Under the pieces are notes generated by a model. It worked only from the letters and a program-made list of their open reading frames with translations. It made no database searches and was not told the DNA's origin. Made by a program: the position numbers and the translations under genes. DNA of 63,786 nt, filler included, from Welwitschia mirabilis (taxonomy: Eukaryota), in assembly GCA_051453625.1 (NCBI GenBank). It is 7 parts of one record of this genome, joined end to end, with 100 filler letters (N's around TTAATTAATTAA, not from the genome) between each part and the next. Parts side by side here need not be neighbours in the genome. Positions count along the whole stretch, not along the records: positions 37,043 to 40,631 come from JBOZIK010000001.1; positions 40,732 to 55,685 come from JBOZIK010000001.1; 5 more parts are not named here. One strand, written 5' to 3'. Shown piece by piece: positions 21,979 to 55,650 of this stretch. Numbering within the stretch: position 1 is the stretch's first letter; each line of letters starts with the position of its first letter.

Positions 21979-22412
21979 TAAGCTTCAGAGCGGTGGGCTA
22001 AGGGAAGCCATATCGGTAACCATGACAGCAGCCAAATAAAAGCAGAGGAAGTTTACCGAGACAATTGAGCTTCAGATCGGCCTTAAGAACTATGACCCGC
22101 AGAAGGGCAAGCATTTCAGCGGTTCCGTCAAACTTCCACACATCCCGCGCCCGAAAATGAAGGTCTGTATGCTCGGAGATCCGCAACATGTTGAAGAGGC
22201 AGAGAAAATTGGCATGGATTACATGGACGTGGAGTCCCTAAACTTAATAAAGCTGGTAAGTTTCCCACTCTTGTCATACATCAAGAGTCATTGGAATCCA
22301 AAGTGAATGAACCCAAAGCAACCGTGAAGTTCCAAGTGAAGAAAGTCCTCTGTATGAGTGTTGCTGTGGCGAACTGAAGAGTACCATGGGCAGGCCTCAA
22401 CGAATTTTCTGA
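21979..22412 (+). pseudogene. RPL10A: 60S ribosomal protein L10a (uL1) pseudogene with two internal deletions
   Basis: KLQSGGLREAIS...[120 protein letters not shown]. One premature TAA. Confidence 0.97.
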
Positions 22413-33601: not shown

Positions 33602-36600
33602 TGTTGAGAACCCATTGTTATTGATTAATTAACAAGTTTTTATAGTTAGTATTTTGTGCAAGTAATTCCCAGCACCGGGCAATTGACTTAAAATATCGGG
33701 CGATTGACTATTAAAGAACTATGACACTGCTTCAGGATTAGGCGACCGCACATGTGAAACTGGGCGACCGAAATGATACAGCATAAAGAAGACTGGTTCA
33801 AACATGGGCGACTGACCATATTCATATGGGCGACTAATCATATTCGATCTAATCTGATAGCAAGACAAGCGATCGACTAGATTCCTATGGGCGACTGCAT
33901 CATGTGCAGTAAAATCTAACCTGATAGTAGGATGGGTGATCAACTAGAGTCCTATGGGCGACTACATCTTATGTAATAAGAATCTATCTAATAATAGTAC
34001 GGGCGATTAATAATTTCGTGACAGATGATTGCATGACAATCACTGGAACATGATTCTGGTGATTGCAAGGTCGATCTAATAAACATGATAACGGGCAATT
34101 GCATTTTACCCAGAATCTCCCCTCATAAGGTCGACTGAATAAGAGTGGTCAGGGCGACCCAGTTAAGGTCGACCACTTATTAAAATAAGGGTGACCGAAC
34201 TTGCTCTTATTTTGTACTAGAAATCTGTGATAAGCAAGGTGACCGAATGTTAGAATAAGGGCGACCACAGATGTGGGTGACCGAAGTCTTACATAAGGTC
34301 GATCATGCGATGGAAAAATGTAACCATTATAAATATAATGGTTCATTAGAGAAAGCGCAATAGTTCCTTAAAAACCACAATAGTTCATTTCTTCCTATGA
34401 GAATGGCTACCTTATATGTCTAAAGTATAAAAGCTCTCCTCTAATCAATATAGGACATACACTACTTCTAAAATCTAAGATTGATAAGAACTATTATACT
34501 TTCTTGTAGTACATCTGAATAATCTTCAAGTTCAGATTTTTGTTGTACTTATATCATTGTAACTTTTTGAGAAAAAAAGATTGCTGCACCTTAGAGAAGA
34601 CATCTATGCATTAGTGCATCCTTTTTTCTATCATTCATTCATGGTTATGGATAAGTCTTAAAATTTTCATTAGTTGTGAAAAGTTATTTGGTGAGCCTGA
34701 AAATCATTCTTGTAAGCAAATATATGTCAGCTAGGATGAGGAGTCTACGAAGTTGAAGGGTGGTGTCTATCCACCATTCAATACCTTGTTTTTGTATTCA
34801 TTTATATTTATCGTATTTGTAGGTCATGAAGAATAAGGAAACAGGTTTTAAAAAGATCTATTCACTCCCCTCTAGGTTTGATCCTTGACTTTCAATTGGT
34901 ATCAGAGTGAGGTTAAGCAATAGATCTTAACAAATCTCTGTTCCACTCATCTCTAGAAAATGAGTTAACCCACTAAAGAAAATTCTGTCACAAGGCCTCC
35001 CTTTTTCGATGGAACAAATTATGGTTATTGGAAAGAAAATATGAGAGTCTTTATCCAATCCATTGATTTGGAAATTTAAGAGTCTATCATTAATGAGTAT
35101 TGTCCTCCTACTATGCAAGATTCGGTTACTAAGTTGGCAATTCCAAAAAGTAAGGACAAATGGAGGCTGGACGAGAAACAAGTCACAACATGCAACTTCA
35201 AAGGCCTAAATGATATCTTCTGTGCTATAGGTCCAGAATATTTTAAAAGAGTTATGAATTGCACCACTACCAAAGAAGCATGGAATATCTTGGAAACCAC
35301 TCACGAAGGAATAAATCTAATAAAGTAGGCTAAGTTTTAAATGCTGATCACCCAGTTTGAAAACCAAAATATAGAAGATGATGAAGGTATAAATAATTTC
35401 TTTTCAAAGCTAATAGATATTATAAACTGTATGTGTGAATTAGGGGAATCAATTAAAGAATCAAGAGTGGTTTACAAAGCCTTGAGATCTCTGCCAAAAA
35501 GGTTCGAATCAAAAGTAACTACTATAAAGGAAAGCAAGGACTAAACATCATGAAACTGGATGAACTCCAAGGGAACCTTCACACTTTTGAGCTCAAATTT
35601 GGAAAGTAGAAGAAGAAGAGTATGGCATCATCTACCACACATGAAGCTCCTAAAATCAAGGATGGATCTGACCTAGAACCAGATAGCAATGATGAGGTAA
35701 CTCTTCTAGCCAGAAGGTTCAGACACTTCATGCAGAGACGACAAGGTGGAGGTTAGTTTAGGAGACCACTAAGAAGGAAAGAGGAAGGACGTCATGAAAT
35801 TCAATGTTATTCTTGTGAATGTTTTGGTCATACATCAATGTCTATCCTAACAATAGAAAAGATGAGAAAAGAAAGGAAAAGAAAGCCCTATCTGGAACAT
35901 GGAATGGTGAAGAAAGTGAAAGTAAATAAAACTTAGATTCAGAACATGGTGGTATCTCTCTTATGGCTATTGTCAATGAAAAGGTATATTCTACTTCTCA
36001 CATTGATTTAGTTATTAGTAAAGACACACTTAATGATATTGAATTGTAATTATATTTGGAATGTCAAAATCTGGCTCATAGAGTAAACCAACTAAGAAAA
36101 GAAAATACGCTCCTTATAGATAAGCTTGAGATTAGGGAAACGAAAATTAAAGACCTAGAAAGTAACTTTGCCTTAACCTCCTATAGAGTTAAGGATCAAG
36201 CTTCTCAAAAATCAGTCCCTAGCTCATTCAATTCTTATCAGTACTCATATTTCAAACCTTCATCTAAGGCAAACTCCAAAAATTCTTTAGCTAATATCAC
36301 CTGTCATTATTGCAACAAAAAGAGTCATTCTAAGGTTGACTATATATTTTGCAAAAGTTGGTTTTCTCACTCTATATTAGGGTCTAAGTTTATTTTCTCT
36401 AAAAAGTTTCATCCTGTTGCAAACAAAAATAAGTGCCTCAGGTGGATCCCAAAATCCATAACTAAAAGCCTTTTGGTCCAAATGGCTTTAAGAGCAACTA
36501 ATCATTACTGTTGGTATCTAGATAGTGGGTGCTTAAGACATATGGCAGATGACAAATCAAACTACATCAGCTTCAAGGAATACAATGGAGGAGAAGTTAC

Positions 36601-36942
36601 ATTTGAGGACAATGGAAGAGCTCAGATTGAAAGATTTTCGGAAGCATCGGTGAAGGTAACTTATCAAATATTCACAATGTTTTATTTATCAATGGATTGA
36701 AGCATAATTTGTTAATCATTAGTAAGATTTTTGATAAGGGTCATAAAGTCCTTTTTGATGAAAACAAATGTATTATGAAACACAGCAAAACTGATCAACC
36801 ATTACTTGTAGTGAATAGACATGAGAATGTGTATTGTGTAAATCAGTTAAATAACTCTACATGTCTATCTTCTTATACTCAAGAAGACATTATCTAGCAT
36901 TAGCATTTAGGTCATGTTAGTTTTGATACTTTGAAAAAATTA
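33602..36942 (+). mobile_element. Nested Sirevirus-type copia element, 5' half (LTR, PBS, gag, protease), cut by gap
   Basis: LTR 33602-34894 (TGTTGAGAACCC...TTCACTCCCCTCTAGG...TTTCA). PBS TGGTATCAGAGT at 34897-34908. Gag from 34960, zinc-knuckle remnant and WYLDSGCLRHM protease motif in ORF 36056-36700. Confidence 0.93.
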
Positions 36943-37042
36943 NNNNNNNNNNNNNNNNNNNNNNNNNNNNNNNNNNNNNNNNNNNNTTAATTAATTAANN
37001 NNNNNNNNNNNNNNNNNNNNNNNNNNNNNNNNNNNNNNNNNN

Positions 37043-37110
<68 letters not shown>
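37043..37110 (+). repeat. (GA)34 microsatellite at contig start
   Basis: Direct read. Confidence 0.97.
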
Positions 37111-37113
<3 letters not shown>

Positions 37114-40100
37114 ATAAATAATGATCATAATCTTTCGTATTTGAGCTAACAACATGATTACCATGATGTCCTACTACACCAGGGTAAAATTTCTTGAGAG
37201 GGACCTTTGAAAGTGTTAGTAGCTGTGGGAACTCCACTAAGGATTTAGTTGGCCATGCTTTATAGGTCCTTACTCCTCTAATAGTGGTTACGCTTACCTC
37301 ATCATGGAAAAATAATTATCACTTAGAGGCTATAGGATCAGTGATGTTCCTAGTATCATCGAAGGCAATACTTATTTCCTAGACTCATTGAGCATACAAT
37401 ATTCCCACATGATCATTTCACTTTTTTGGATTCTAGTATAGTTTTGGGGTAAAAGTAATTAAGTCTATTTTTGAGCAGCTTTTGATCTTATCATTTAATG
37501 ATTGAAAACATTAGTTTATTTGGCACCATTATAATCACTACCTATTTGAGTGATACTGTATGGTATTTTTATTTCATTTCATGCATCATTAATTGAGTAA
37601 TTTTATGATTTCTACTAAGGGAGTTTGTTAAGTTAGAATTTAGGATAGGTATACAATCTTCTTCATCTTCCTGGTCATCTATTTTTATTTTCTTTTCCTT
37701 AGACATTTTACTTGGTATTTAAAAGTCATTTCCATAGTTTTTCATCATAATACTTCGAACTTAATCATTTAGTAGTTTTCTTGTTCTTTTTCCTTTCACT
37801 TGCAGTTTTTAACCATAGGTGTTGACTTTCTTTTAGCATTTCAACTAATGATGCTCTTTTATTTCATAATGATAAATTCTCCCATATGTTATTTTAGCAT
37901 CTTTTTGAGTTTTGACACATCCACTTGCTACTATTAAATCATTTTGAGATTTAACACATTTAAGGATTTTTCTTAGCATTGCCTCTTCCTATTTGGTGCA
38001 TTACCACTACTCTATCTTGACACTCTTTTCTCTACCTCAAGTTCTCCTCTTTTCACGCTTTATTAGTTATTATTTCTTAGTGTTTATTAATCTTTTAAAC
38101 TTCATAATGACTTTTTGTGGCCTTACTATTGTAGTTATTTTATCTTACCTGGACTTCCATTTTTTCTAATATTTCTGAGAGGCCTATCATCAACCTAGTC
38201 ATCTGGATAACAGAGGTGGATGACACTTAAAATATGTTTTTTATCTCTTTCTTTTTATGTTAAGGCAATACAAGACATATTCACATGTGGGGGAACAAGA
38301 CATATTTTTTAAATATTTTTGTGTAAAAATTTTAATTATAGGGGTTATTTTTTAACTTTCATGATACACATATATGATGTGCTAATTTGGTTATGATTTC
38401 ATGTTATTTGTATGATATGCATTAGGGGTGTTATTTAGTAGGACACACACTAAACAGCACTCTGAATATGCACTTTTGAGTTAAGGAGGAACATCTTCCT
38501 TCTTCACCTCCACCTCTGAGCTTCCATATAGACTTCTATATAGTGGCACAAGGAGAGTAATGTTAAAATTATTGTTGTTAATGTATTTACTCTTTTTGTG
38601 TATTGTACTTAAAATATCAATGATTAGTTTATACATAGCACTTTTGAGTTATCACTGTTCTTGATTAAACATGCACATCATTTATTTAAGTTACTATGGT
38701 TATATCTTTTAACGACTTTTTGATATGCCAATCAATTTCTATTTTTTAATGTGCTAAAAATTTTAAGTGGGAGGGCTAATGTAGTTTGTAAGTACTCTGA
38801 TCTTGTTTTTTGATGATCATGATCACAAGCATTTAATTTTTCATTCCAATTTTTGAAGCTTGTCATCCCCACCATCATCCGAACGACATACAAGACGATA
38901 GTATGATCCTACACTATGCCAAGATAATATGTCTAGTTCATCAGATTTTCGTTTTAAATCCTGCATGATAATATTTTTGAACTAAATTCATGTCTCCCAA
39001 GTTACTATTTATCTTAGTTAATTTGGCTCACAATTTATAGTTGTTTGCTTACTTTGTAAGGGACTAACTAAGTACAAGGCTATGTTGCAATGTTAAATTA
39101 TATGTATTTGATGGGGTATTTTGAGTAGTTTTGTAGGACATTTAGATAGGTTTAAGTGAAGTTTTAATGACTATGGAGAGTCAATGGAATGATTGTGTAA
39201 CTATACAATTCTTATCATATTTGAAGGCATTAAAGGCAAATTATAAGGCTTAGCATTCTGAAGAGGAGTGTAATGATCTAAGAGGTTGATTTTACTTAGT
39301 TGGATAATTTAAAAGGATGGCATTCCCATAGTTGTCTGGACGACAGTACTGATCGATAGCACATTAGGAGCTAGCAAGGATGCTGACTTGGACTAGAGCT
39401 GGAAGTTGATGTCATCTTTTATAATATGCCATCGTCTCGATGGTCATCTGGACAATAGTTAGGACAGCATCTATTTTTAAGTAACAGACAAAACTAATTT
39501 TGTAATGGGTCACATGCCCCCTTTGGGTCATTAGGATTTGTTTATCCATTAGGGTTTTGCCTCTAGAAACTTCCATGTAAAATAGGAAATAAATATCCCT
39601 TATCCTCATTTTCACACTATCTTTTGTACCTAACTCTTATGATAGGAGATAAAAGAGTAAGAAATCCATCCGTAGCTACAGAGAGAAGTCTTCCTTGGTG
39701 TTACGCTATGTATCCTCCATTGAGGTGCTGCTGCTTTATAAGTGGATGCTTGGTTTCCATTATGTGCATCTCCTTTATGGTTTATGTTGGTTATAATTTT
39801 ATGATAGCTTTATAATTGATATAGGTCATAAGGGTAACCTTTGATAGATTAATATTATTAGTTTAGATCTTGTATTTTATTATAATTTGCATTTCATAAC
39901 TATAATAGTTGCATTCCATTATATTCTGTTCGATGTGCCTTATTGCCTACATTGATTATGATTTAGTGATAGTATTTCCTGATTAATTTAAATTATAAGG
40001 GTCAATTTTGGTAATAGAGGTCAGTAGTTAAATAGAGCTACTACTTAGAGTATTTTCTGTTGCATCTCATTTATAATCATTGCATGTGCATTTTATTTCT

Positions 40101-40307
40101 ACATTGTTCTTATTTCTTGAACTTAAATAGAAAAAGACCAAAAATACTTTATCAAAATCAATTCTCTAACTTCAAGCCTAGCGCCTTCGATGGATTATGC
40201 AATTTGAGTTGACTACCATGTATACTAGCATTTGGTTTGTGCAAATATTTATGATCAATAGGGTTTTGCCTAAGAACTTAAGGAATGCATAAATATGCAT
40301 TACAACA
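37111..40307 (+). mobile_element. Athila-like gypsy 3' internal region and 3' LTR (39083-40307)
   Basis: Possible GPY/F remnant (PCFIGPY, ~37253-37273), TGTGGGGG-type tracts, and an LTR TGTTGCAATG...TTACAACA homologous to 16997-18226. Confidence 0.7.
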
Positions 40308-41286
40308 ATGACTTAGAGGTGAATGCCTTAAAAGCACTTTTTGATGTTAAGCATCTCACTAAGTAGGTGAGTAAGTAGGAAAATATGATTCCAATGCTTA
40401 AAATAAGCATCTAACCACATCAATACAGTAACAGTATATCATAATACAAACACTAGAATAATAAATAAAACTTTTGTATAGTTATGTTAGCTATAAAAAT
40501 GAAAATGAATCCAAAAACTATCGAACATCTTCTTTTCATTCCTATTTTCCTTTCTATTGCTTTCATCATTGTCTATTTTCCTTTCTAGTTTTTCTATCAT
40601 TTATTTCTTGTATTTCCTCTTTACCCCTAATNNNNNNNNNNNNNNNNNNNNNNNNNNNNNNNNNNNNNNNNNNNNTTAATTAATTAANNNNNNNNNNNNN
40701 NNNNNNNNNNNNNNNNNNNNNNNNNNNNNNNAAGGTATTATTATATAAATTTAATTAGATTTAATGAATTCATTAAGTTATTCTTTCATGATAATCTTGT
40801 AAAACATTTATCTATGGAATATTCAAGATCAAGAAAGAAAAAAAAGTTTAAAAAAATTTAATTGATTTTGAGCTTTTTCCAATGTTATTGCTTTTTCTGC
40901 TCCAATTGTTTTTTTTTGTTTTAGTATTTTTAATTTACCCTTTGGGCCAGTCTGGTTGGTTTTTTGAGCTTTTTTCAATTGATCTCCTACAAATGGTATC
41001 AAAGCCAAGTTGACATCCACGCTTAACGGCATTCCCTTCTGATCCTGCAAAGGATAGACTCTCCTTGTATTCAGATCAATTTCTAAGACCTCAAAGCCTA
41101 CAAACCAATCATTTCTGTTGAGAAACTTGCGATTTCTGTGGCGCACCTGAACAATAGGCGACAGCGACAATAACGATGTTTTGGATGGAGAGATCTTGAA
41201 AGATTGACAAAACTCAACACCACATTCAGATCCTCGTAGTCTCATCCCCTGTGCATTAGAAACCCTACCCTTTCCCTCCGTCTGTA

Positions 41287-41505
41287 ATGAACATTGACTC
41301 GCATGGCAACAACACTTCGGCCTACAGCAATGACCAGTAGTATGAGGATGAAGGAGAACAGACGAAGTCGATCTCTGCATTGCGTGTGAAGCGCATCCAT
41401 CCACCGGACGATACCGACGATGGATCACCTCTGGCCAGGAAGAAGGCAGAGAATGCCCCTGGCGAGTCCAAGAAGTCTCCCGACGGACTCCGCACGACGA
41501 AATGA
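41287..41505 (+). pseudogene. Captured 5' end of an unidentified host gene
   Basis: A telo-box AAACCCTA and pyrimidine-rich leader precede ATG. Translates MNIDSHGNNTSAYSNDQ*YEDEGEQTKSISALRVKRIHPPDDTDDGSPLARKKAENAPGESKK. CpG-rich. Confidence 0.5.
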
Positions 41506-41731
41506 TTTTTCCAAAGTTTCTTATCACCTGCGCCTCTGGTGGAAAAGCGCAAATGGTGTCGTTCTGTGAGTACACGCACAAAGCGCTTCTGGAGATAAGC
41601 AACAACCAGGTTTATAACAAGGATGCGTCAAATGAGGTCGCACTTTTGGCAAATCTAGAAACAGCTATGGGAATTTCAAATGATCGTTTTCTGTTTCGGT
41701 CACCTCACAAGGCCAAGATCCGTGCGATTTG

Positions 41732-41845
41732 GAAGCAGATCTGCAAGACTTGTTTGAAGCCAAAACCCGTGTTGGAAATCTGTTAGTGCCTTGTGGTGCA
41801 TTGATTACTACAGGAATAGTGACAGTGGGTCTTATCATTTTCAGG
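41732..41845 (+). pseudogene. HIG1-domain (hypoxia-induced gene / RCF1-like) N-terminal fragment
   Basis: EADLQDLFEAKTRVGNLLVPCGALITTGIVTVGLIIFR versus recalled plant HIG1 EPDMEDLFQEKKRVRNPLVPLGALMTAGVLTAGLISFR. Confidence 0.85.
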
Positions 41846-43639
41846 GACGAGGATTCTACTGCATCTTTTTGCTACTCCTAGACTAATGAGAAACAAGCTC
41901 TAATTTACACAAAAAGAAATCTTAATGTGCTTTTTTCTTTTACTTTATAATCTTATAAAGTTTTTTAAGGTGGGAAGGTTAAATATATTAACCATGTGAC
42001 TTATTAATCTAGGTTAGGGGCTTGTCGTAACTAGATAATTTGTTTGATGCAATTTTATATGAAGGTAATGGTATGGGGAGTGGTATGGGACATGTCTCAT
42101 AGTCCCTTGTAATTTTGGGTTTGTTTCTTTCTTGGGTCTATCCCATTTGAAGTGTTGGGTGTGTCTCATGGTTTCAAGCAAGGTATGTAGATTACTTAAG
42201 GAGACCACTCAAAGGATGTCTTATTTGAAGTTGCACAGGATGAAGGGTGTAAATTCATCTAGGAAGATCACTCAAAGGAAATATTCCCTAAAGTTGCACA
42301 TTTTAGTAAACCATCTTCAGTATTTCGGTGGCTATTGACAGTCTTAAGATTTTGGTGCTATTGTGTGCTATCATCAGTTTTTGTGGTTTTTCATAATTAT
42401 CATGTTAAGACTTCTACAAGTCTTAACATGAAGAAGGGGTTTGTTGAAAATCTTCTTTTCATTCCTATTTTCCCTCTTGTTGCTTTCATATTGTCTATTT
42501 TCCTTTCTAGTTTTTCTATCGTTTGTTCCTGTATTTCCTTTTTACCCCTCATTTCCTTCCAAAATTCCCTTAGTCTTTTCTATTTTCAAGAAGTATTATT
42601 GTATAAATTTAATTAGGTTTAATGAATTCGTTGAGCTATTCTTTCACAATAATCTTGTATGCTCCTTATGGGTGCTCCCCCAGCTTCTTATTGTGCCAAA
42701 AGGATCTTTCGATTCTAAAAAAACACTATATCAGTAATTTGAAAAAAGAATTTTATCATATTTATAAAATAAACTATTAATAAAACAACCCTAGGGAAAT
42801 GTGAAAAATAGAAATAATATGAGAGTTTTGACAAGTTCAAGAAGAAGAAGAGGTTAAAAGATAATAGAATAAGAACAAAGATGAGAACTTTAATTGAAAT
42901 AGTTAAATAAACTTTGTAATTCAATACTTTAAAAGTGCTAATGACAATATTAGTGGTTTAGTTTAGGTTTAATTGTATTAAACACATTACTAAGAGCCAC
43001 CATATATCATTCAACAAATATATTAAATATTTTAAAAAAGATAAATTTTCTAATAATAAAATAATTTATAATAAAGTAATGAAAAATATCAAGTTTTATA
43101 TTAACAAAACTTTATTCATAATATATGATGTATTTTATTCCTTATAGTTTCATTATAACTTTTTTTCACATGAATGCTATAAAATAAATATTATGTCATT
43201 TAAAAGGGGTACTAATGTTAAGGGTATGCATAATATCTTTATAAAAAGTACTAGCATGAAACTTTTAGCTGTTAAAAGATTTGATGAACTGTATATGATT
43301 TACTTCAAAGTAGTTATGATATTACCAATAACGAATACCACTATGAAATGTGGCACCAATGACATTTTCATGTATACTTACAATATATTGAAAACATTTA
43401 TAAGTTATTCTAAGCATCTAAATGCTTGGAACATGTAGAAAAGGGAAAGTAGAGAAAACTTTAGTTTAGGAGATCTATGGTATAATGAAACTATTAAATA
43501 TAACTCATTATAACCCAAAAATATATTGAAGATTTTGATGCAGAAGCATCAAAATAGGATTTTAAAATATAACATAAAATGGAGTACATATAGAAAATTT
43601 AGATCTATAAAAACCTTATACACAAGTTTTCATTAATGA

Positions 43640-43870
43640 CCTTATAATAGCACTACATTATCACCTCCCTAAAAGAATTTGCAAAAGATCACTACCCATT
43701 CCCCAAAACATCTTTTATGACAAATGAATGTTTGATTGTTAAAAAGAAGATACTCTTCAATTCTTTACTAGGATATTTTATCATATCAATGTAAGGTTCC
43801 CTTCCCTAAATTACTTGAGCTACATGGGCATCTATGTTATAATGGTCCCTAAATCCAAAGTGTTTTTCCA
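43640..43870 (-). pseudogene. Possible MULE-associated OTU-like domain remnant
   Basis: SIFFLTIKHSFVIKDVLGNG**SFANS resembles the I.DV.GDG.C.FRA motif. Degenerate. Confidence 0.35.
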
Positions 43871-45210
43871 AAAGAAACAAAAACTAAATAGAAAATAAGA
43901 AAAGAAATATATCTCTCTTATTTCTATTGTTATATTACATTATTCCCTCATGAATGTAAGATTAACAAAAAAACTTTCTGGGTGGTTACTGTTAAGTTAT
44001 AATTTTACCATGTTGATGTCAAACTAATATTTTCTGGTATGGCAAAATATGTTATATTTTTTGGAGAAAATATTAATCCTTGCAAGTCAAAATCAATAAA
44101 CATTTTTCATTGGCTATGCTTGAACTTGACAAGTCACAGACCCTTAAAGGGGTCAACTATATTCTTAAGGGTTAACTACGCCTATACAAAAAAATTTTAC
44201 ATATTTTCATTAAGGGATCGACTAGAGGTTTGAGGGTTGATCGGAGCTGGGCTAAAAATGTTTTTAACTATTTATCATATGAGGTCAACCAAACTAAAAT
44301 GCAGTCAACTGGACCTAGACATATACAATCAACTAGATCTAGATATATGTAGTCGTTCAGATCCCTAATGGGGTCAATTAGACTTGAAAACATGAATAAC
44401 CTAGGTCAACTGGAAGAAGATAGGATCGACCAACTTTAGTGACGGCACTCAATGGGGTCGATCGAATATTTCAAGAGTCGACTAGTTGTGATAGAAACAA
44501 AATTTCACAGTCTATTTTATAGTTGTTGCCTTGTTATTTTTGTCTATTGGAATATCACATCTACTTGCAAAACCCTAAAATCTATCTTCTATATAAATTT
44601 CAGCTGTCAAAATCATGGGATATTCTTTTTAACTTACCAAAAATCGAAAAAGCATCTTTTCATTATCAATTCTTTAGTTAATCAATTTGCATTATACATA
44701 CTTGGATTTATGACATCATTTTTAGATAATGTTGTGCTATCTTTGCTATACTTTAGATCTGGTAAAGCTTATGCATCATAACACATTATTAACACTAAAA
44801 AGCGTTTTCTCTAAAGATTGAAACTGAGACTTTAAAAGTCTAATTATAAAAGGTTATAGGTGAACGTAAGATAGTTGAAAAGTAAGTAACAAGGATCTAA
44901 ATTAGCCTTAGGTAGAAGCTGATTGCTAAGGGTAGAATAGAGGATTTCCCAAACCACTATAAATCATGTGTCTGACAATCTCCATTGGTATTTTTTTAGT
45001 TTCAGTCATTTTTCTTTCAGATCATTTTATTATTTTATATGCACAAATATTTTTCAATATTCAATACTTTGTGAAGATAATTTTTATTTAATTTATTTTT
45101 AAATCCTATTCACCTCTCCCTCCCAAAGGATTCTAGATCCAATGTTTACTATCAGAGCATGGTTGAGTCATTTGTAGATCCTAACAGATCTTGACTCCTG
45201 AACCCTAGTT

Positions 45211-48200
45211 ATGAGTAATGATACTGATGGCCTCTCTACCGGAAGACCACCCATGTTCAATGGGACTAACTATGCTTACTAAAAGGCAAGAATGAGAATC
45301 TTTCTTACATACTTAGACATAGACATAGAGGAGATTATCTACAATAGATATGTGGTGCCTACACTATCCAAAACTAATAGTAATGGAACCACCATTGTGA
45401 TGAGAGATCTTGAGACCAATGGACCCGTACCGATAAAGCCAAGGCAACCTTAGATGTCCATGCTCTTAATGATATTTTTTGTGTAGTTTATACAAATGAA
45501 TTTAAGAGGATTATGAACTGCGAACATGCTAAGAAAGCTTGGGATCTACTTGAAATCGCACATGAAGGAAGATCTAATATAAAATAGGTAAAGCTATAGA
45601 TGCTTATCTCTAAGTTTAAAGATATTTGCATGGAAGAAGAAGAGACTCTACATGAGTTCTTTATTAGATTGACAGATATAGTAAACTCTATGGCAAGTCT
45701 AGGTAAGAAAATAAACAAATAAAAAGTAGTACGAAATGTTCTAAGATCTCTTCTAAAACACTTTAAGCCAAAGGTCACAGCTATAGAGGAAAGCAAGAAC
45801 ATCAATCGAATGGCACTATAGGAAATAAAAGGTAATTTTCAAACTTATGAGTTAAAGTTTTCTAAATATAAACAGAAAAGTCTTACACTGAAAAGAATGC
45901 AGGAAGAGTCCAGATTTGAAAAATCAGATGAAGACCTTGATGAATATGAGGTTACGCTTTTGGCAAGAAGATTTAAAAATTTCTTGCACAAAAGAAAGAG
46001 AGATGGTAAATCAAATAAGGGATCAAATAGGGGTAATTTCTAACTAAGAAAAGATGTAGAAAAAGGAAAGGAAATTTAGTGCTATGCATGTAAAGGATAT
46101 GGACATGTTGCAAACAAACGTCCAAATAATATAAAAGATTAAAGAAACTCCAAGACATCATCCTTTATCATTGTCTGGAATAATGTAGATGAAGAAGAAG
46201 AAAATAGCTCAAGTCAAGATTCAGATGAAGACAGAAGACTTTTGTTCATGGAAATAGTTCCTCCCATGAAGAACATGCCTTGCTCAACTAAACTAGATGA
46301 CCTAAAACTTATTGAAGAATGTCAAAAGAAGCTAGAAGATACTTACTAAGAACTCTTTTCACAATGTGAAAAATTAGCAAAATGGATCAATGGGTTAAAC
46401 AAGTTAGTAAAGTCTCTAAATAAGAAAAAGGAAGATTTAGAGCCAAAGTATAGGATGGTTCAAACAGAAAGTACTAAGCTAACTCAAGAATTAAAAATCT
46501 TATCTCATTTTCTAAATAAATTTTCAAATATTTTAAGTAAATTGGAGCAAATTCTTAAAATACGAAGACCAGTTCATAACAAAAGGTTAATGGCTTCATC
46601 TCTTAAAAACCATGCAATTAGTTAAATAAGGTAACATGTTAAAATAACTCTATGTCAAAGATTACTTATCATTTTTCTAGAAAGATAGATCATTCAAAAT
46701 TATTTTGCAATGTTAGAAAGACAATGCTCTTTTTAAGCTCTATTAGTAATTTTCCATTTAAATTTGTTTTAAGAGGATGTATACCACAATAGTCCAAATG
46801 GACTAAGTGGATAAGGGCTAAAAATTTGAAAATTTTATTGATCCAAACAACCTTTACAGTATCAAATGAAACTTGCTAGTACTTGGATAGTAGTTTTTCT
46901 TAATACATGACAAGTGACAAATCAAGATTCCAACATTTGGATGAATTTGATAGAGAAGAAGTAACATTTGATGATAATGAAAAGCAAAAATTAAAGGCAT
47001 TGAAAGCATTGGTGGAGGTAACATGCCTAAAAGTAATGAAGTTTTATATGTTAGTGGTCTTAAACGTAGTTTGTTGAGTATTAGTTATATTTGTGATAAA
47101 GGTCATAAAGTTATTTTTTATAGTCAAAAGTATGAAGTTATACATGATAAAGTAAATGGTATTCTTCTTAAAGCAAATAGAATAGATAACATTTATAGCA
47201 TTTATTAATCTTTATCTAGTTGTTATTTTTCTTATATAAATCAAGAAGGACTATGGAACCAATGGTTAGGATATGTAAACTATGATCAACTTAAAATACT
47301 CATCAAAAAGGAAATCTTGAAAGGGATTCCTAAAATCAATGTTGATAAACATGGGTTATGTGATGCTTGTCAAAACGAAAAGAAATTAGAACCCCCCAAT
47401 AAAAGTAAAAACTGAGTTTCCACATTTATGCCTCTTGAGCTTATTAATATGGACTTGGTATATCATTCTCAAACCAAGAGCCTAGTAGGAAAACAATATT
47501 TTTTTTGGTAATAATTGATGACTATTCTAGATTTAGTTGGATTATCTTCTTATAAAACAAAGTTAAAACGTTTAAGAGATTTATTGAAATTTGCAACCAA
47601 ATTTAGAATGAAAAAGAGTACTTTATCAAACGAATTAGAAGTGATCATGGAGGTGAATTTGAAGACCATCATTTTAAAAAATATTTTGTGGACAATGGGA
47701 TTGAGCATGAATTTTCAGTATCAAAAACTCCACAACAAAATGGGGTAGCTGAAAAGAAAAGTAGAGTTCTCCAAGAGGTGGCAAGAACAATGCTAAATGA
47801 TAAGGAGGTTCTAAGAACTTTTTGGGTTGAAGCAGTAAGTACTGCATGCTATATCATCAATAGAGTTTATCTTATACCTAGTATGGATAAGACTTTCTAT
47901 GAGCTCTAGAAAGGAAGAAAATCAAATATATCTTATTTTAAAGTCTTTGAAAGTAAATGTTTTATTTTAAAAGATAGAGAAAATTTATGTAAATTTGAGT
48001 CTAAACTAGATGAAGCAATTTTCCTTGGGTACTCCACTAATAGTAGATCTTATAGAGTCTTCAACAAAGAAATCTTAACAAGGTGAAAATCTATAAATGT
48101 GTAAATTAATAATACTGGTTCACACCATTGTCTATAAGTGATGAAGAAAATCTCTTACAAATTTACACATATGACAAGGAATATACAAAAAGAAAAGAAA

Positions 48201-49869
48201 ATGAAAAACACAAGAATTAGATACAAAACATTTCTAAGAATTAAAGGATGATCCTCTTGATTTAGTTATTGGAGATGTAAATTTGATTATACACACTAGA
48301 CACTCACTTAAAAATGTTTTTATCCATGTATTCTATGTGTCTTAAGTTGGAATGATGAACTATGAGGAGGATGAAATTCATAAAAAATGGATAATGATAA
48401 TGCAAGAGGAGTTATAGCAATTTAAAAGAAATAATGTTTGGAAGCTAGTTGAAAGACCTAAGGATGATTGGAATAAAATGGATATTTAAGAATAAATGTA
48501 TTAAACACAATAATGTGATCAAGAATAAGGCAAGACTAGTGGCTCAAAGATACAATCAGATTGAAGGAATCAATGTAAGCATTACCTTTGCTCCTATGAC
48601 CAGGTTAGACAGCATTAGAATGTTTCTTTCATTTGCAACTTTTAAAAATTTAAAGTTTTCCAAATGGACGTAAAAAATGCTTTTTAAATGATGTGCTTAA
48701 TAAAAAGGTGTATGTGGAGCAATCTAGAGTCTTTATAGGTTTTCATAAATCAAACCATCTCTATGGATTTAAAAAGGCTTTATGTGGATTAAAATAAGGC
48801 CCTAGGACATGGTATGAAAAATTAACAACCTTTTCTTGAAGATAGTGGTTATAGTTAAGGATCTATAGCTAAAACTCTCTTCATGAGGCAATTTGAATAA
48901 TACTTTGTCATTATTCAGATATATGTTAATGATAGAATTTTTGGAGCTTCAAAGGACAAATTAACAAAAGAGTTTACTAATATCATGATAAAACACTTTA
49001 AGATGATCATGATAAGAGAAGTGAGTATGTTTCTTGGGTTGTAAATTAGACAAACCAATCAAAGAATCTTCATTTTCTAATCAAATATGCTAAGGACTTA
49101 GTGAAACATTTTAGGCTTAAGAATGTAAAATCAACTACCACTCCATATCAACATCATGTAAAATTAATCTTGACAATGAAGAAAAATCAATTGATTAAAA
49201 ACTTTATAGGAGTATGATAGGAAGTTTATTATATTTAACAGCTAGTAGACCTGATATAATGTTTAGTGTAGATGTTTGCACAAGATATTAGAAAAATCCC
49301 AAAGAATCACACTTTTAAGATGTAAAAAGAATCATAAGATAAATAAAAACTACTAGTGATTATGAGTTGTTATATTCTGAAGAAACATCTTTTGATCTTA
49401 TAGGATCTAGTGAGGTAGACTGCGCTAGATGTAAGAACAATAAAAAAAGTACAAGTGGAAATTGTTTCTTCCTTAGTGCTTGTTTGATAGATTGGACAAG
49501 TAAGAAATAAAATTTCATTTTTCGCTCCAATGCTGAAGCAGAATATGTTACAGCAGGAAGCTATTATACCCATCTTTTGTAGATGATGAAAATACTAAAA
49601 TACTTTGTATTTAACTATGACTAGGTACCCATTTTTCATAATAATACGAGTGCAATTAACATATCAAAAAATCCTATTTAACATTCTCATACTGAACATA
49701 TCGAACTTAGACATCATTTTCTTAAAGATCAGGTTAACAAAGGAAATATTACTATGAATTTTGTAAACATTGATCAACAACTAGCTGATATCTTTATGAA
49801 GCCCTGAGCTTTAATAAATTTTTGAATCTTCAATGCAAACTAGAGGTTCTGTCACTATCCTTTGACTAA
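45211..49869 (+). pseudogene. Disrupted gag-pol (gag, protease, integrase, RT, RNase H)
   Basis: MSNDTDGLSTGRPPMFNGTNYAY; integrase RIRSDHGGEF and TPQQNGVAEK; RT KWIFKNK..KARLVAQ; RNase H QLADIF. Many stops and frameshifts. Confidence 0.95.
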
Positions 49870-50276
49870 AAGTAGGGCAATCAACTAAAGTTTCAATCTG
49901 GTCGACTAGATCTGGAGAAGTTGGATAGATTGGATTTTAACTCGGTTGCCCAAACTTGTTTAGATGAATCTTACTTAAAGTTAGGTCAACTAGAATGAAG
50001 TTCTAATTAACCAAATCTGAACAAGAAAAGACTTGCATCTCGATGGGTCGATCGAACTTAAATTTGGTTGACCAAACCTAGAGAAGTAATAGCTACAGAA
50101 AGGTGGTGGACATAAATTTTTTATCAAATCTAACTTACTTTGCCCCCTTTATAAAAGCTTTTGAAACCCTATCTTGTTCATTCACACCTTTCTCCCACCC
50201 GCCTCTCTCATTTTTTATCTGCTTCCTTCATGTTCTTCATATATTTAGTAAGTACCATGTTACAAGCATGGTAGAG

Positions 50277-51301
50277 TAGCCATTAAGGAGATCAAGGTAA
50301 AAAGTACCCACTAATAGAGATCCATCTTATTTTATTAAGGCATGTCAGAAAAAGGCATTGAAAGGTTTACTGCAAAGTTTGAAAAGAAGCCTACCTTTCA
50401 AGAATGCCTAGTTACCTCTAGTGAGTTGAGGGAGATTCATGATGTTGTAAGACTTCTAAGTGATCTAGATATTTCTTATTTTCTCGATGTATCTAGCTCT
50501 GCTTATTCTTTTTTTACTTGAATGTCTTATACAATTCCACTTATAATGCTAACTCCTCCACCCTTTGCACACTTGTATTAGAAAAGAGAATGAGTATTAT
50601 CCTAGATTTGATCTCTTCAGTTACAAATTCCCCAAAGGAAACTATGGAGAGTTTTGGCCTTTAGGAGACTCCATGGAGGACAAGGATGAAGTTACTTGTA
50701 AGCTCAGTAGAAAGTTTATCTAGTGGAAAACTACTCTTTCCAATTCCTAAATTATTCCAAAGTACTACTTTTTACACCTTCTTTTTACTTACAAATATTT
50801 TACTGCTTATTGGTCATCATGATAAGACCTTAAACTATAAAGAATATCTCTTGTATTTGGTAGAAACTTATCATATCATTAATGCTCTTGCCATTATCCT
50901 TAAGAATATGGTGTCTCAGCTTGAATATTATAAGAATGGAGATCTCCCTTATTCCATTTTTCTTTCAAAGATTTATTAGCACTTCAGAGTTTAGTTTTAT
51001 TCTCAGCTTAAAACTTTGACTCTCATGTCTTCTATAGGTTATGATACTCTTTCATGAATGCATATATTTTCTAGATTTAAATCCTCTAAATCTCCTTTTT
51101 CAAAGACGGTCTCTCCCAATAAAAACCTATCATATCTCAAAAAATTAGATTCATGAAAAAAGCTCTTATTATGGTTGACTATCAGATCGCAAATAGCTCA
51201 AAAGAAGCTAGTAGTCGTTAGGAAAAAGAGATAAAAAGGAAGAAGAAGAAGAGGACTCAGAATCAGAAGAAGAATTTGATAAAGAAGAAGAATCAAATTA
51301 G
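50277..51301 (+). pseudogene. Env-like extra ORF of the Sirevirus, disrupted
   Basis: Lies after pol and a pyrimidine-rich leader. ERFTAKFEKKPTFQECLVTSSELREIHDVVRLLSDLDISYFLDVSSSAY...GDLPYSIFLSKIY, with an acidic tail. Confidence 0.75.
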
Positions 51302-51674
51302 TTTTTATTTTGTATTTTCTATCCTTTGTCATTGATGTCAAAAGAGGAAGAAAAGTATAGTCTTATTGTTACTATTGTGTTAAAGGTACCTTAGTATTTT
51401 GTTGAATCTATTCTTATGTTTGATGTTTTAAAAACTACTTTTGCTTTACCTATATGCTTAGTTGTAGTATTTTTATACAATAATACTCTCATGTCTTATT
51501 CTATTGGTAGTCAGTTCTTTATTTAATACTATAGAAATTATTCATGGCTTATAAAATAATCAACCAGTGTTTTCNNNNNNNNNNNNNNNNNNNNNNNNNN
51601 NNNNNNNNNNNNNNNNNNNNNNNNNNNNNNNNNNNNNNNNNNNNNNNNNNNNNNNNNNNNNNNNNNNNNNNNNN

Positions 51675-53282
51675 TGAAACCTTAGAAAAAGATCTTTTAA
51701 AATAATTCACTAGCATTATAACCACACAATTTGAAATGAGTATTCTGGGTGAAGTTTGCATGTTTCTTAGTCTTCAAATTAAAAAAACAAAATACAAGAC
51801 TTTCATCTCTCAATCCAAATACTTAAGAACTTGATCAAGCAATTTAGACTAGAAAATGTAAAATCAACTAACACACCTAAGTCAACTTCATGTAAGGTCA
51901 GTCTTGATGATCATGGAAAATTTGTGGATCAAAAACTTTATAGAAGCATGATAGGAAGTCTATTGTATTTAATCACAAGTAGACCTGACATAATGTTTAG
52001 TTTCACTATATGTGCAAGATATTAAACTCAACCAAACAAATTGCACCTCTAAGATGTCAAAAGGATTGTAAGATATATAAAAGGAATAAGCGATTACGGG
52101 CCAGGGTATCCTATAAAAACTTCCTTTGAGCTTGCAGGTTTTAGTGATGCAAATTGGACTAGTTGTAAAGATGATTGAAAAAGAACATGTAGATATTATT
52201 TTCTTCTAGGATCATGCTTAGTAGGATGGTAAGTAAGAACCAAAACTCTATCTCCCTTTTCATAGCAGAAGTAGAAGATATAGCAACATGGAGTTACTGT
52301 ATCCATGTTTTATAGATAAAGGAAATGCTTAAATACTTTAGAGTAAATTTTGAATAGGTACCAATTTTTTGTAACAATACTAGTATAACTAATATCTCAA
52401 AAAACCCTATTCAACATTTTCAAACTAAACATATTGAACTAAGACATCATTTCCTTAGAGATCAAGTAGAAAAAGGTAATATTTCCATGAACTTTGTAAG
52501 CACTGATAAACAACTAGCTGATATTTTCATAAAACCCCTAAAATTTGATAACTTTTTTAGACTTCATCGCGAATTAGGGGTTATCTCTCTGTCTTTTAAC
52601 TAAAAGCAAGAAAATCAATCAGATCTTACATTTGGTCAACTAGATCTAAAGAAGTCTAGTCAATTAAATTTTTTTTCCCACCACCTAGAATTTTCCACCT
52701 AAATCAAATCAAGTTAACTGAACTGAAGTATTGATCAAATAAACCTAAAATTATTTCAACATAGGCAATGGACACAATTTTTATCTTAGATTTAACTTGA
52801 TCATCCTCCTTTATAAAATCTTATGCATTCCTACCTTCGTCATTCCTACCTGTCTACCTATCTCTCAGATCTAGCTATCTTCTTCCATTTTATTTATCGT
52901 CATGAAATGTCACATGTTGTCAAAATGACAAAGGATTCCTCCAAAAGAGCTTTTCAAAAGGCACTAGTAAGTAAAGATCCAAGATATTTTTACTCTGAAA
53001 TGTTGAATAAAGCCCTAGACAAGTTCAATGAAAAGTTTGAGAAGAAGCCTGTCTATCAAGAAAGGCCAGTAGCATAAGGGGAACTCAAAGAATTGAGGGA
53101 CGTGGTAAAAGTTATAGATGATTTGGATCTTTCTTACTTTCTTGAGGTTTCTAGGTCAGCGTATCTTTTTCTTACCCAAATATTCTATTGTAATGCTTTT
53201 TTAATGCAGATTCCTCTACCCTTACAACTTTTATTTTGGATAAAATAATTTGAATTATTATAGATATGATAGCCTCCCTCAT
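51675..53282 (+). mobile_element. Second, diverged copy of RT C-terminus, RNase H and start of env-like ORF from a related Sirevirus
   Basis: KLYRSMIGSLLYLITSRPDIMFS, QLADIF and DKFNEKFEKKPVYQERPV parallel ~48950-50620. Confidence 0.9.
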
Positions 53283-55488: not shown

Positions 55489-55650
55489 CAGATCATCAGA
55501 TAGAATTTCAAATGCTTGATTTATCTCCTTAAATTCTTTAGCACCTGCTAGATTTTTTTCTGGATGGAGGCAGAGAGCTTTCTTTGTGTAGATTGATTTT
55601 ATGACTTAGGGTAGGGCTCTGTGTAAGAGCCCCAATGTGATGAAGGGGCA
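55489..55650 (-). pseudogene. DnaJ J-domain fragment
   Basis: CPFITLG/..VIKSIYTKKALCLHPEKNLAGAKEFKEINQAFEILSDD, a J-domain pattern with HPD changed to HPE. Confidence 0.8.

Follow-up and report, generated by a model that had tools for sequence, protein, structure and literature searches.

The locus at 40519-42659 of the window (by which we mean the whole 63,786-nt stretch of DNA analysed, filler included, from Welwitschia mirabilis assembly GCA_051453625.1) is a mosaic of fragments from at least two nuclear genes, enclosed by LTR-like repeats with PBS- and PPT-like motifs, as had been proposed in a sequence-only reading. It spans parts of JBOZIK010000001.1 on either side of an assembly linker and measures 2141 nt, the 100-nt linker included (Table 1). 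One of its gene pieces carries intron DNA, and reverse transcription of spliced mRNAs is probably not how the cargo arose. We favour, with about as much doubt as conviction, an old and small LTR-retroelement shell that was filled by DNA-level patchwork and is now decaying. The anatomy given in the earlier reading is mostly real and is corrected here as to the position of the PBS, the identities of the genes, the TSD, and a plastid psbD fragment and a high-copy repeat (R3) that had been missed.

Table 1. Features of the mosaic locus, in coordinates of the window.
Feature	Position	Strand	Basis
R1 direct repeat, 5′ copy, first part, LTR-like	40519..40631	+	88.99% identity over 109 nt to 42446-42552
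Assembly linker N44-TTAATTAATTAA-N44	40632..40731	.	replaces ~40 nt of R1, by 3′ copy 42553-42592
R1 direct repeat, 5′ copy, last part, end ...CTTGTA	40735..40801	+	89.55% identity over 67 nt to 42593-42659
A-rich spacer, R1 end to psbD insertion	40802..40865	.	no homology to sequence past 3′ R1
18-nt direct duplication, first copy, flanking psbD	40866..40883	+	17/18 identical to 40962-40979; 0/1000 shuffles reach score
Plastid psbD (photosystem II D2) fragment, sense	40884..40966	+	43/43 PDB matches; left edge approximate
18-nt duplication, second copy, then ...CTCCTACA	40962..40991	+	alignment to 40866-40883
PBS-like site, initiator Met-tRNA	40994..41006	+	TGGTATCAAAGC at 40994, one mismatch in 12-nt core
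CpG-containing untranscribed sequence, common to few paralogous loci	41007..41246	+	depth, paralogue contigs, RNA depth ~0
GeBP-like (PF04504) 5′ UTR, ATG and ~150 codons, pseudogenised	41247..41741	+	phmmer, tblastn, mRNA ends
HIG1-like partial exon	41742..41845	+	mRNA support 41750-41845; HIG_1_N, HIGD2A matches
HIG1 parent intron DNA	41846..42100	+	paralogue contigs collinear; RNA depth 0
R3, piece of very high-copy dispersed repeat, internal 63-nt duplication	42143..42308	.	depth, loose ends
32-nt palindrome just upstream of purine tract	42400..42431	.	93.75% self-complementary
PPT-like purine tract GAAGAAGGGG	42430..42439	+	2 nt upstream of 3′ R1 (42442)
R1 direct repeat, 3′ copy, 218 nt, TG start, TA end	42442..42659	+	alignment to 5′ copy; multi-copy depth

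The locus is real, and its cargo junctions lie in contigs of two organism labels: an X1 contig over 40939-42067 shows 1 difference from the window, and X5 contigs over 41117-41571, 41550-42000 and 42594-43600 show none. Parts of the stretch were found in 13 runs from 4 studies, and at least half of its words in 6 runs; no RNA run is among those listed as containing it. An assembly artefact, through a false contig join at the linker or via the high-copy repeat at 42143-42308, would suit a draft assembly with many N runs and 7 copies of this linker in the window. It would also suit the lack of a bridging contig over 42100-42587 in the aligned runs, which leaves the original assembly and the coincidence of R1 as the evidence that the cargo and the 3′ R1 copy belong together. 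Against it stand the agreement of the two labels, the spread over runs and studies, and R1 itself, which is collinear over the linker, as the sequence-only reading had argued, and returns beyond R3 with its orientation unchanged. Such an arrangement is not what a misjoin at random would give, and we regard the artefact as very improbable.

The two R1 copies (~220 bp each, same orientation) are terminal direct repeats of the kind that bounds an LTR retrotransposon. Indeed, 157 of 176 aligned bases are identical and the ends are sharp: between the copies, the 150-nt flanks align locally only at the level of shuffles, of which 527 of 1000 score as high upstream and 415 of 1000 downstream. Contig depth over R1 is 48-128 against a baseline of 6-10, which shows only that the repeat is multi-copy; the window holds no further copy. 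LTR termini are by definition TG...CA. R1 does not follow this rule: the 5′ copy starts with TA, the 3′ copy with TG, and both end in ...GTA, where the terminal TA may be a decayed CA. Nor was a TSD of 4-6 bp seen at 40519 and 42659, where no pair of 5- or 6-mers agrees with at most one mismatch. What had been called paired LTRs holds as regards the direct repeats, their sharp ends and their collinearity over the linker, and fails as regards the TSD and the terminal TA. We infer that R1 and the PBS- and PPT-like motifs formed one former element.

The window contains two PBS-like sites with one mismatch, where 0.20 were expected (at least two in 1 of 100 shuffles); the other belongs to copia A (34897), a real copia element, and copia B has a site with 2 mismatches at 45147. 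The claimed Met-tRNA PBS is present as a motif on the right strand, but it lies 192 nt past the R1 end instead of adjoining it, and it has its own ...CA before the site: CTCCTACA, at the end of 40962-40991, provides an LTR-end-like CA 2 nt upstream of the PBS. Even if the psbD insert is subtracted together with one of the two duplication copies, 96 nt remain between the site and R1. Beyond the PBS itself, the leader on its 3′ side cannot be aligned to copia A or copia B. The stretch 40963-40985 was considered as a relative of the R1 end and rejected, 162 of 500 shuffles being as good. At the other end of the interior, the purine tract taken for a PPT is confirmed: GAAGAAGGGG stops 2 nt short of the 3′ repeat, where the PPT of an LTR retrotransposon would lie; purine runs like it occur at 0.95 per kb.

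The psbD fragment, which was missing from the earlier inventory, is a nuclear plastid-DNA insert (NUPT), with plastid-gene homology lying within nuclear sequence. All 43 PDB matches are to PSII D2 (best E 1.6e-4, D2 residues 141-166); a second psbD frame (31 aa) has no PDB match, and the left edge of the piece is therefore approximate. Contig depth over the piece reaches 1938 (X1) and 16178 (X5) against the baseline of 6-10, a plastid-like level with a ~8-fold difference between runs, and psbD-like RNA reads continue beyond 40966 into sequence foreign to the window. A duplication at the edges of an insert of this type is expected for insertion in break repair, according to parts of a review (PMC7037861).

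The gene start recognised by its telo-box (41260-41267) and ATG (41287) belongs to a GeBP-like gene, and the further exon-like pieces that had been left unidentified are the same GeBP-like fragment: the coding part, 41287-41741, is the frameshifted 5′ half of the gene. In phmmer its frame matched P0001 (E 1.7e-14) and P0002 (E 4.6e-8), both of which bear GeBP-like_DBD across the aligned part. Along the piece the tblastn frames run +1/+3/+1/+3, the DNA-binding-domain part aligning to P0001 and P0002 only over +3/+1/+3; the ORF of the piece itself does not match PF04504, and an intact frame for the domain is absent. The damage comprises a TAG at 41338, a 1-nt deletion near 41484, two frame changes within 41593-41680 and internal deletions, the latter deduced from the loose ends of the parental mRNA at 41341 and 41485 and from its joint of 41288 to 41428 with 96 other letters. 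A third match, P0003 (1822 aa, E 8.2e-8), was confined to the query's first 38 residues, which are out of frame, and was set aside as a chance match to a repeat protein; a word-index protein search of the 144-aa frame against longer proteins gave nothing.

The parental GeBP-like mRNA leaves the window at 41247, and genomic paralogues remain collinear back to 41176 and 40987. The sequence in between, 41007-41246, is probably upstream or 5′-UTR-intron DNA of the GeBP-like parent. Its contig depth is 21-42 against the baseline of 6-10 and increases towards the PBS (33-42 in 41020-41115), its CpG o/e is 0.70, and it has no protein match on either strand. One paralogue contig covers 40987-41353 and is 84% alike; others begin at 41176/41178. 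RNA depth is 0 in the bins over 41020-41211 (maximum 0.38, in one column), the next bin, 41212-41307, already including the exit of the mRNA.

The HIG1/RCF1-like fragment of the sequence-only reading is a real match, although it stays below threshold: HIG_1_N is hit at E 0.0047 over profile positions 2-29 of 52, its 17.5 bits do not reach the Pfam gathering score of PF04588 (HIG1), 22.4, and the HIGD2A chain match has E 1.1. For the HIG1 frame, a word-index search against proteins of similar length found nothing, and in the ESM Atlas the best score, 0.91, fell to an unnamed cluster, with no lead to HIG1. By eye the homology starts at ~41735, overlapping the GeBP-like end. RNA reads (133-135 in X14, 49-59 in X17) match the window from 41750 to 41845, beyond which the parental mRNA runs on in frame, and RNA depth is 0 in 41884-41979 in both RNA runs. 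Genomic HIG1 paralogue contigs, 86% alike, bear the variants of the mRNA at 41776, 41783, 41812, 41838 and 41842 and are collinear with the window over 41741-42100; left of 41741-41747 they differ from it for 56 and 318 nt. Since the mRNA departs at 41845 and the paralogues continue to 42100, the piece carries at least 255 nt of intron DNA. The intron loss that had been suggested as a check on mRNA capture is not seen; with its intron retained, the HIG1 piece was copied from genomic DNA and not from spliced mRNA.

The CpG-rich block of ~0.9 kb described earlier is borne out by a CpG o/e of 0.80 in 41007-41890, against 0.13-0.31 in the remaining interior and the flanks. The part at 41890-42440 that had been called non-genic contains the very high-copy repeat R3, with a depth of 660-3600 and many loose ends with heterogeneous flanks at 42132-42172 and 42303-42308. 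None of the 7 interior ORFs matches a gag/pol family, in line with the earlier statement. Rfam (E up to 1) had no match over 38000-45000, and ARAGORN found no tRNA gene in the whole window. A 260-aa open frame runs on the minus strand over 40829-41611; it has no Pfam match, its residues 105-205 gave nothing in the word-index protein search, and we provisionally treat it as the antisense of coding and T-rich sequence.

As far as shown by the aligned contigs, the locus is single-copy. The bin at 41596-41691 has depths of 7.07 and 6.85, the single-copy level; none of the diverged contigs listed (~57/100 of each DNA run having been read) crosses 41741, and among the contigs listed the junction of the GeBP-like and HIG1 pieces is covered only by those of the locus itself. 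The proposal of a family that shuffles pieces of transcripts finds no support in these results. Most RNA reads are less than 90% alike to the window (329 of 340 in X14, 221 of 254 in X17): the reads on the cargo derive from diverged parent genes and not from the locus, for which transcription is not detectable and which gives no sign of activity. Of the 38 differences listed between the window and the parental mRNA, 24 show T or A in the window opposite C or G in the mRNA, 11 of them at parental CpG; this copy is a derived one, decaying by C-to-T change. Cargo and paralogues differ at 58/367, 61/420 and 50/360 letters (14-16%), and the R1 copies from each other at 19/176 (11%). The psbD, GeBP-like and HIG1 pieces are all sense relative to the PBS-to-PPT direction, for which the chance is 1 in 8 if orientation is random.

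How were these pieces assembled? According to the sequence-only reading, a non-autonomous LTR family gained pieces of transcripts by reverse-transcriptase template switching and carried them on while moving. The order and strand of PBS and PPT, the sense orientation of all three coding pieces, a cargo divergence that is not below that between the R1 copies, the paralogue contig beginning at 40987 beside the PBS and the depth growing towards it would all suit such a route. A there-and-back template switch could also give the 18-nt duplication around psbD, and parts of PMC4717578 describe TRIMs that hold pieces of as many as three genes. However, the HIG1 piece has kept its intron, and RNA reads retaining that intron number 0 in both runs; the GeBP-like piece includes DNA upstream of 41247 that is absent from the mRNA, and a scrap of a plastid gene is unlikely as a packaged RNA. 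These features weigh against the capture of mRNAs, and the missing TSD, the separation of the PBS from the repeat and a junction region confined, among the contigs listed, to those of the locus also count against it, as does the exon-only content, with TSDs, of the gene-carrying TRIMs in the same parts of PMC4717578. We consider this route unlikely. A further reading has no single element at all: the R1 copies would belong independently to a dispersed repeat, the PBS would be part of a stray fragment of another copia-type element (LTR end, PBS and leader), and the rest would be unrelated fragments accumulated in transposon-rich DNA. Such an accumulation, which we hold to be rather unlikely, agrees with the absent TSD, with the 192-nt distance of the PBS and its own ...CA end, with the multi-copy depth of R1 (48-128), with the copia debris in which the window is rich throughout, and with the presence of at least 6 pieces of differing origin within 2 kb. 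It leaves to coincidence that a repeat with only ~8-20 copy-equivalents is present twice at a distance of 1.9 kb, both times in one orientation, with a purine tract exactly where the downstream copy begins and a right-strand PBS after the upstream one (chance each ~0.003-0.01). A segmental copy of one contiguous neighbourhood, in which a GeBP-like gene lay just upstream of a HIG1 gene and which was later shortened by deletions, is improbable: the two fragments do share their orientation, both contain non-transcribed or intron DNA, and internal deletions relative to the parent are present (ends 41341 and 41485, joint 41288-41428 with 96 letters), but the HIG1 paralogues are unlike the window left of 41741-41747 (56 and 318 nt), so that a further deletion is still needed, and psbD, R3, PBS and PPT are left unexplained.

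The shell filled at the DNA level, which we prefer, would have begun as a non-autonomous element made of the two R1 repeats, the initiator-Met PBS and the purine tract. A psbD scrap would have been inserted with its flanking 18-nt duplication, the GeBP-like upstream DNA and first ~150 codons would have been taken from DNA, the HIG1 partial exon and intron would have been joined to the GeBP-like part at ~41735-41745, and a piece of a high-copy repeat would have been added to the interior. The parts and their parents, the retained intron, the duplication around psbD and the direction of decay are observed, and the repair mechanism is inferred: the joining would most likely have occurred at the DNA level, through double-strand-break repair with ectopic filler DNA or through synthesis-dependent template switching. 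The absence of a TSD, the 192 nt between PBS and R1 and the R1 ends in TA instead of CA count against the LTR shell. The sense orientation of all three coding pieces suits an RNA route better than random filler. As the cargo has diverged more than the R1 copies have from each other, it could already have been aboard at the last transposition, and the paralogue contig starting at 40987 with the rise in depth to the PBS could represent further copies of the element. It is unlikely that these signs reflect a small LTR lineage which, in place of spliced mRNA, takes up promoter- and intron-bearing genomic DNA as well as organellar DNA, with the GeBP-like start having passed through at least one transposition and sister copies beginning at 40987.

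Junk mosaics of such a kind and gene-carrying TRIMs are already known, the latter for example from soybean GmaRetroS15 (Gao et al. 2016, Genome Biol 17:7, PMC4717578); the term Pack-TRIM was not found in the literature searched. In parts of that paper, gene-carrying TRIMs resemble the locus in their short terminal direct repeats, their lack of retrotransposon proteins, an interior of ~1.2-1.5 kb and up to three host-gene fragments. There they contain exons only, have both LTRs and 5-bp TSDs, are mostly present in at least two copies and stay below 1500 bp without gaps, whereas our locus, likewise free of retrotransposon proteins, keeps intron and upstream DNA, has no TSD, is single-copy at its junction among the contigs listed, and forms a ~2.1-kb unit with a plastid scrap and a foreign repeat inside. 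Maize Bs1 and LTR transductions, as described in parts of PMC13317346, are likewise LTR-bounded and non-autonomous and hold sense pieces of several host genes. Their capture is exon-only and RNA-mediated, while here the mRNAs exit at 41845 and 41247, intron DNA is present, and neither transcription nor amplification was seen. PMC3726574 does not mention introns. Pack-MULEs share with the locus genomic exon and intron fragments from more than one gene, according to parts of PMC4717578. Unlike Pack-type TIR transposons, the locus is bounded by direct repeats, and no terminal inverted repeats enclose its cargo: every inverted pair in 36000-48000 either is an artefact of the linkers or has widely spaced arms with 72-76% complementarity. 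NUPTs and filler-DNA break repair, in the parts of PMC7037861 cited above, have in common with it a short organellar piece joined to non-organellar DNA among transposons, with homology or duplication at the edges. Here the organellar part is just ~85 nt, the bulk of the patchwork being nuclear gene DNA, and the 18-nt duplication is longer than the micro-identities of 1-7 bp given in those parts.

Should the LTR-shell reading be right, the locus would be another case of gene fragments inside a small non-autonomous retroelement, and an unusual one, its fragments coming from DNA (intron and upstream sequence) together with a chloroplast scrap. It would then blur the published contrast between retroelements with exons only and DNA transposons with exons plus introns, and a lineage taking up DNA, if real, would be a Pack-type LTR vehicle with a capture route unlike that of Bs1 or the published TRIMs. 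For a single decayed copy no functional consequence can be demonstrated. The locus does call for caution in annotation: the CpG-rich block mimics a gene start, with telo-box and ATG, yet it is a frameshifted and untranscribed copy, to which RNA reads of real genes map at 80-90% identity.

The locus is bounded by two copies of R1, a direct repeat of ~220 bp, as the sequence-only reading had proposed. Indeed, 40523-40631 aligns with 42446-42552 at 88.99% identity and 40735-40801 with 42593-42659 at 89.55% identity, 157 of the 176 bases being identical over both blocks. The 5′ copy is split by a draft-assembly linker (N44-TTAATTAATTAA-N44; 7 occurrences in the window, this one at 40632-40731) that replaces ~40 nt; both its parts remain collinear with the 3′ copy, and the collinearity claimed across this spacer was thus confirmed. 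The R1 ends are sharp: the 150-nt flanks of the two copies are no more alike than shuffles, upstream (527/1000 reach the score) or downstream (415/1000). No third R1 copy was found in the window.

The polypurine tract (PPT) also stands: the purine run GAAGAAGGGG (42430-42439) stops 2 nt short of the R1 3′ copy, which begins with TG. Purine runs of at least 10 nt with at least 4 G number 57 in the window (0.95 per kb). A near-perfect 32-nt palindrome (42400-42431) overlaps the start of the tract. For the primer-binding site (PBS) we searched with the 12-nt initiator-Met motif. With at most one mismatch it has two sites in the window, the copia A PBS and 40994, versus 0.20 expected (1/100 shuffles reaches 2); with 2 mismatches permitted there are 4 versus 3.19 expected, and weight is therefore placed only on the stricter count. 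The site at 40994 is on the right strand with 1 mismatch, but it lies 192 nt beyond the end of the R1 5′ copy and is not adjacent to it; upstream stands its own ...CTCCTACA, then 2 nt. No target-site duplication (TSD) was seen: around 40519 and 42659 no two 5-mers or 6-mers agree within one mismatch. The R1 terminus is TA. Three LTR hallmarks are present (repeats, PPT, PBS motif on the correct strand) and three fail (PBS adjacency, TSD, CA end). Given the placing of the PBS and PPT motifs, a former small LTR retroelement is the most likely frame.

Positions and contig depths of features in and around the locus
Feature	Position	Remarks
copia A	34897-36894	PBS with 1 mismatch 34897; gag 35080-35541; Pol_BBD 36050-36894
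psbD piece	~40884-40966	between copies of an 18-nt direct duplication
Depth interval	41020-41115	33-42
Depth interval	41308-41499	11-16
Depth interval	41596-41691	7.07 / 6.85, single copy
Depth interval	41788-41883	18
R3, dispersed repeat	42143-42308	very high-copy, contig depth 660-3600; some X14 RNA reads
Depth interval in dispersed repeat	42172-42267	2649 / 3617
R1 3′ copy	42442-42659	depth 48-128
copia B	43984-54613	LTR-like direct repeats ~43984-45112 and ~53507-54613, blocks 78-98% identical
copia B PBS	45147	2 mismatches
copia B domains		gag 45414-45719; gag_pre-integrase 47209-47412; SH3_retrovirus 47910-48083; RVT_2 48449-49041

Four public runs were compared with the locus at a likeness of at least 80%: DNA contigs (X1, X5) and raw RNA reads (X14, X17). 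In the interval separating R1 from the PBS, frame 40852-41013 has PDB matches to photosystem II D2 (psbD) alone (43/43 matched sequences; best match E 1.6e-4, D2 residues 141-166). At 40922 the contigs reach a depth of 1938 (X1) and 16178 (X5), versus a single-copy baseline of 6-10 (43228-43600); organelle DNA is expected to vary in this way (~8-fold) from run to run, and the dispersed repeat of the locus has no such gap. RNA reads cover 40828-40966, then run past 40966 into sequence unlike the window. An 18-nt direct duplication flanks the piece on both sides (40866-40883 versus 40962-40979, 17/18 identical; 0/1000 shuffles reach the score), so plastid DNA was inserted here separately and at the DNA level.

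The CpG-rich block of ~0.9 kb noticed earlier is real, with a CpG o/e of 0.80 in 41007-41890, versus 0.24-0.31 in the flanks and 0.13 in 41891-42441. Its 144-aa frame (41352-41786), used as query in a full HMMER scan (cut-off E 0.001), returned 3 proteins: P0001 (431 aa, E 1.7e-14), P0002 (341 aa, E 4.6e-8) and a repeat protein, discarded as it aligned just to the out-of-frame start of the query. Pfam GeBP-like_DBD lies exactly over the aligned stretch in P0001 and P0002 (2/2 scanned). Because tblastn with P0001 gives a single collinear fragment, from the ATG at 41287 to 41741, in frames +1 (41299-41481) and +3 (41487-41741, with a +1 excursion at 41593-41673), what had been taken for a gene start and separate unidentified exon-like pieces reads as one pseudogenised GeBP-like 5′ half. 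It carries an in-frame TAG at 41338, lacks ~22 and ~50-60 codons of P0001, and shows a 1-nt deletion near 41484 (consensus, by eye); parental sequence is missing from the window at 41341 and 41485, where the mRNA has loose ends. Leftwards the mRNA departs from the window at 41247, and RNA depth is 0 in 41116-41211. Since paralogue contigs remain collinear upstream of this exit, to their ends at 41176/41178 and, for one contig type, back to 40987 (84% alike, 58 other letters and 3 gaps in 367), the block includes DNA absent from the mature mRNA. On the minus strand, a stop-free frame of 260 codons (40829-41611) crosses the psbD piece, the PBS and the start of the GeBP fragment. It had no match in Pfam or a protein word-index search, and is probably the antisense of coding and T-rich sequence.

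RNA reads on the cargo, the gene-derived interior, are confined to 41247-41341, 41485-41597 and 41750-41845. Almost all are less than 90% alike (329/340 in X14, 221/254 in X17) and only partly on the stretch (335/340 and 252/254), and stem from diverged expressed parent genes, not from the locus. HIG1 reads enter at 41750 (133 in X14, 59 in X17) and leave at 41845 (135 and 49), beyond which the mRNA goes on in frame with sequence absent from the window. In the genome, paralogue contigs that share the variants of the mRNA (86% alike, 50 other letters in 360) are collinear with 41741-42100, and RNA depth is 0 in 41884-41979; the stretch 41846-42100 therefore belongs to an intron of the HIG1 parent. 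Left of 41741-41747 these contigs extend 56 and 318 nt, unlike the window, and this position is a breakpoint, at which GeBP homology stops as well (41741); a few bases (~41735-41745) seem, by eye, to belong to both homologies. The HIG1 identity is partial, resting on a sub-threshold Pfam HIG_1_N match (E 0.0047), a weak human HIGD2A match (E 1.1) and the in-frame mRNA continuation.

Among the 40 differences listed (437 more lie beyond them) we dropped 40922 and 42166. At 24 of the 38 remaining cargo positions the window has T/A versus C/G in the mRNA, with the reverse at 8 and transversions at 6; 11 of those 24 were parental CpG. The copy in the window is the methylated, decaying derivative. 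The locus's own contigs have depths of 6.5-7.7 (X1) and 4.8-6.3 (X5). An X1 contig spans 40939-42067 with 1 difference, X5 contigs, under another organism label, cover 41117-41571, 41550-42000 and 42594-43600 with 0 differences, and no contig in the compared runs bridges 42100-42587. The stretch is at least partly present in 13 runs from 4 studies, with at least half its words in 6 runs. R3 contains a 63-nt internal duplication (42197-42237/42260-42300) and has heterogeneous flanks, with loose ends at 42132-42172 and 42303-42308.

How were these pieces assembled? Being genomic and plastid DNA, the contents point to DNA-level joining rather than reverse transcription of spliced mRNAs. Such pieces could have been joined by break repair with filler DNA or by synthesis-dependent template switching, both reviewed for organellar inserts in PMC7037861. 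The HIG1 piece at least, with its intron DNA, contradicts the transcript capture by template switching of the reverse transcriptase that was first proposed. Four points nevertheless speak for an RNA route or for movement following capture: the coding pieces are 3/3 sense-oriented (a 1 in 8 chance), R1 divergence (11%) does not exceed that of the cargo (14-16%), one paralogue starts at the PBS, and depth climbs toward the PBS. A fragment with a splice donor and no acceptor would stay unspliced; intron retention therefore rules out mature-mRNA capture, yet is compatible with later retrotransposition. A Pack-type TIR element is unlikely, as no inverted repeats surround the cargo. Nor was a family shuffling gene pieces borne out, since 41596-41691 is at single-copy depth and no diverged contig among those listed crosses 41741 (2953 further pieces lie beyond the listing, and ~57% of each DNA run was covered). 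The earlier observation itself was largely right.

Gene-carrying small LTR elements are already known as a kind. Gao et al. 2016 (PMC4717578) describe gene fragments in 30 TRIMs, which belong to seven subfamilies; these TRIMs measure 1172-1449 bp, one holds pieces of three genes, and they have exons only, both LTRs, 5-bp TSDs and mostly at least 2 copies. Unlike these, as described there, our locus departs in size, in exon-only content and in TSD. Bs1, Veju and an Arabidopsis TRIM transduction are listed in a 2026 review (PMC13317346); the label 'Pack-TRIM' was not found in the literature searched. In kind the locus is an ordinary junk-DNA patchwork, with one mildly unusual trait, an LTR-like shell with intron-bearing and plastid cargo.

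The window is AT-rich, strongly CpG-depleted and plant-like (CpG o/e mostly 0.03-0.4 per 2 kb), and largely retrotransposon debris. The decayed copia A and copia B adjoin the locus; copia A is truncated by an assembly linker at 36943, directly after which a 72-nt (GA)n run starts (37043-37114). Fragments of copia gag and Pol_BBD recur at 233-511 and 13187-13474, both on the minus strand. The window has one other CpG-rich island (22-24 kb; GC 0.40, CpG o/e 0.69); it holds an open frame, 22040-22303, with a Ribosomal_L1 match (E 2.2e-12), which could be a genuine gene or another gene fragment. A DnaJ-domain fragment (55297-55605, minus strand, E 8.5e-9) lies beside linkers and N runs.
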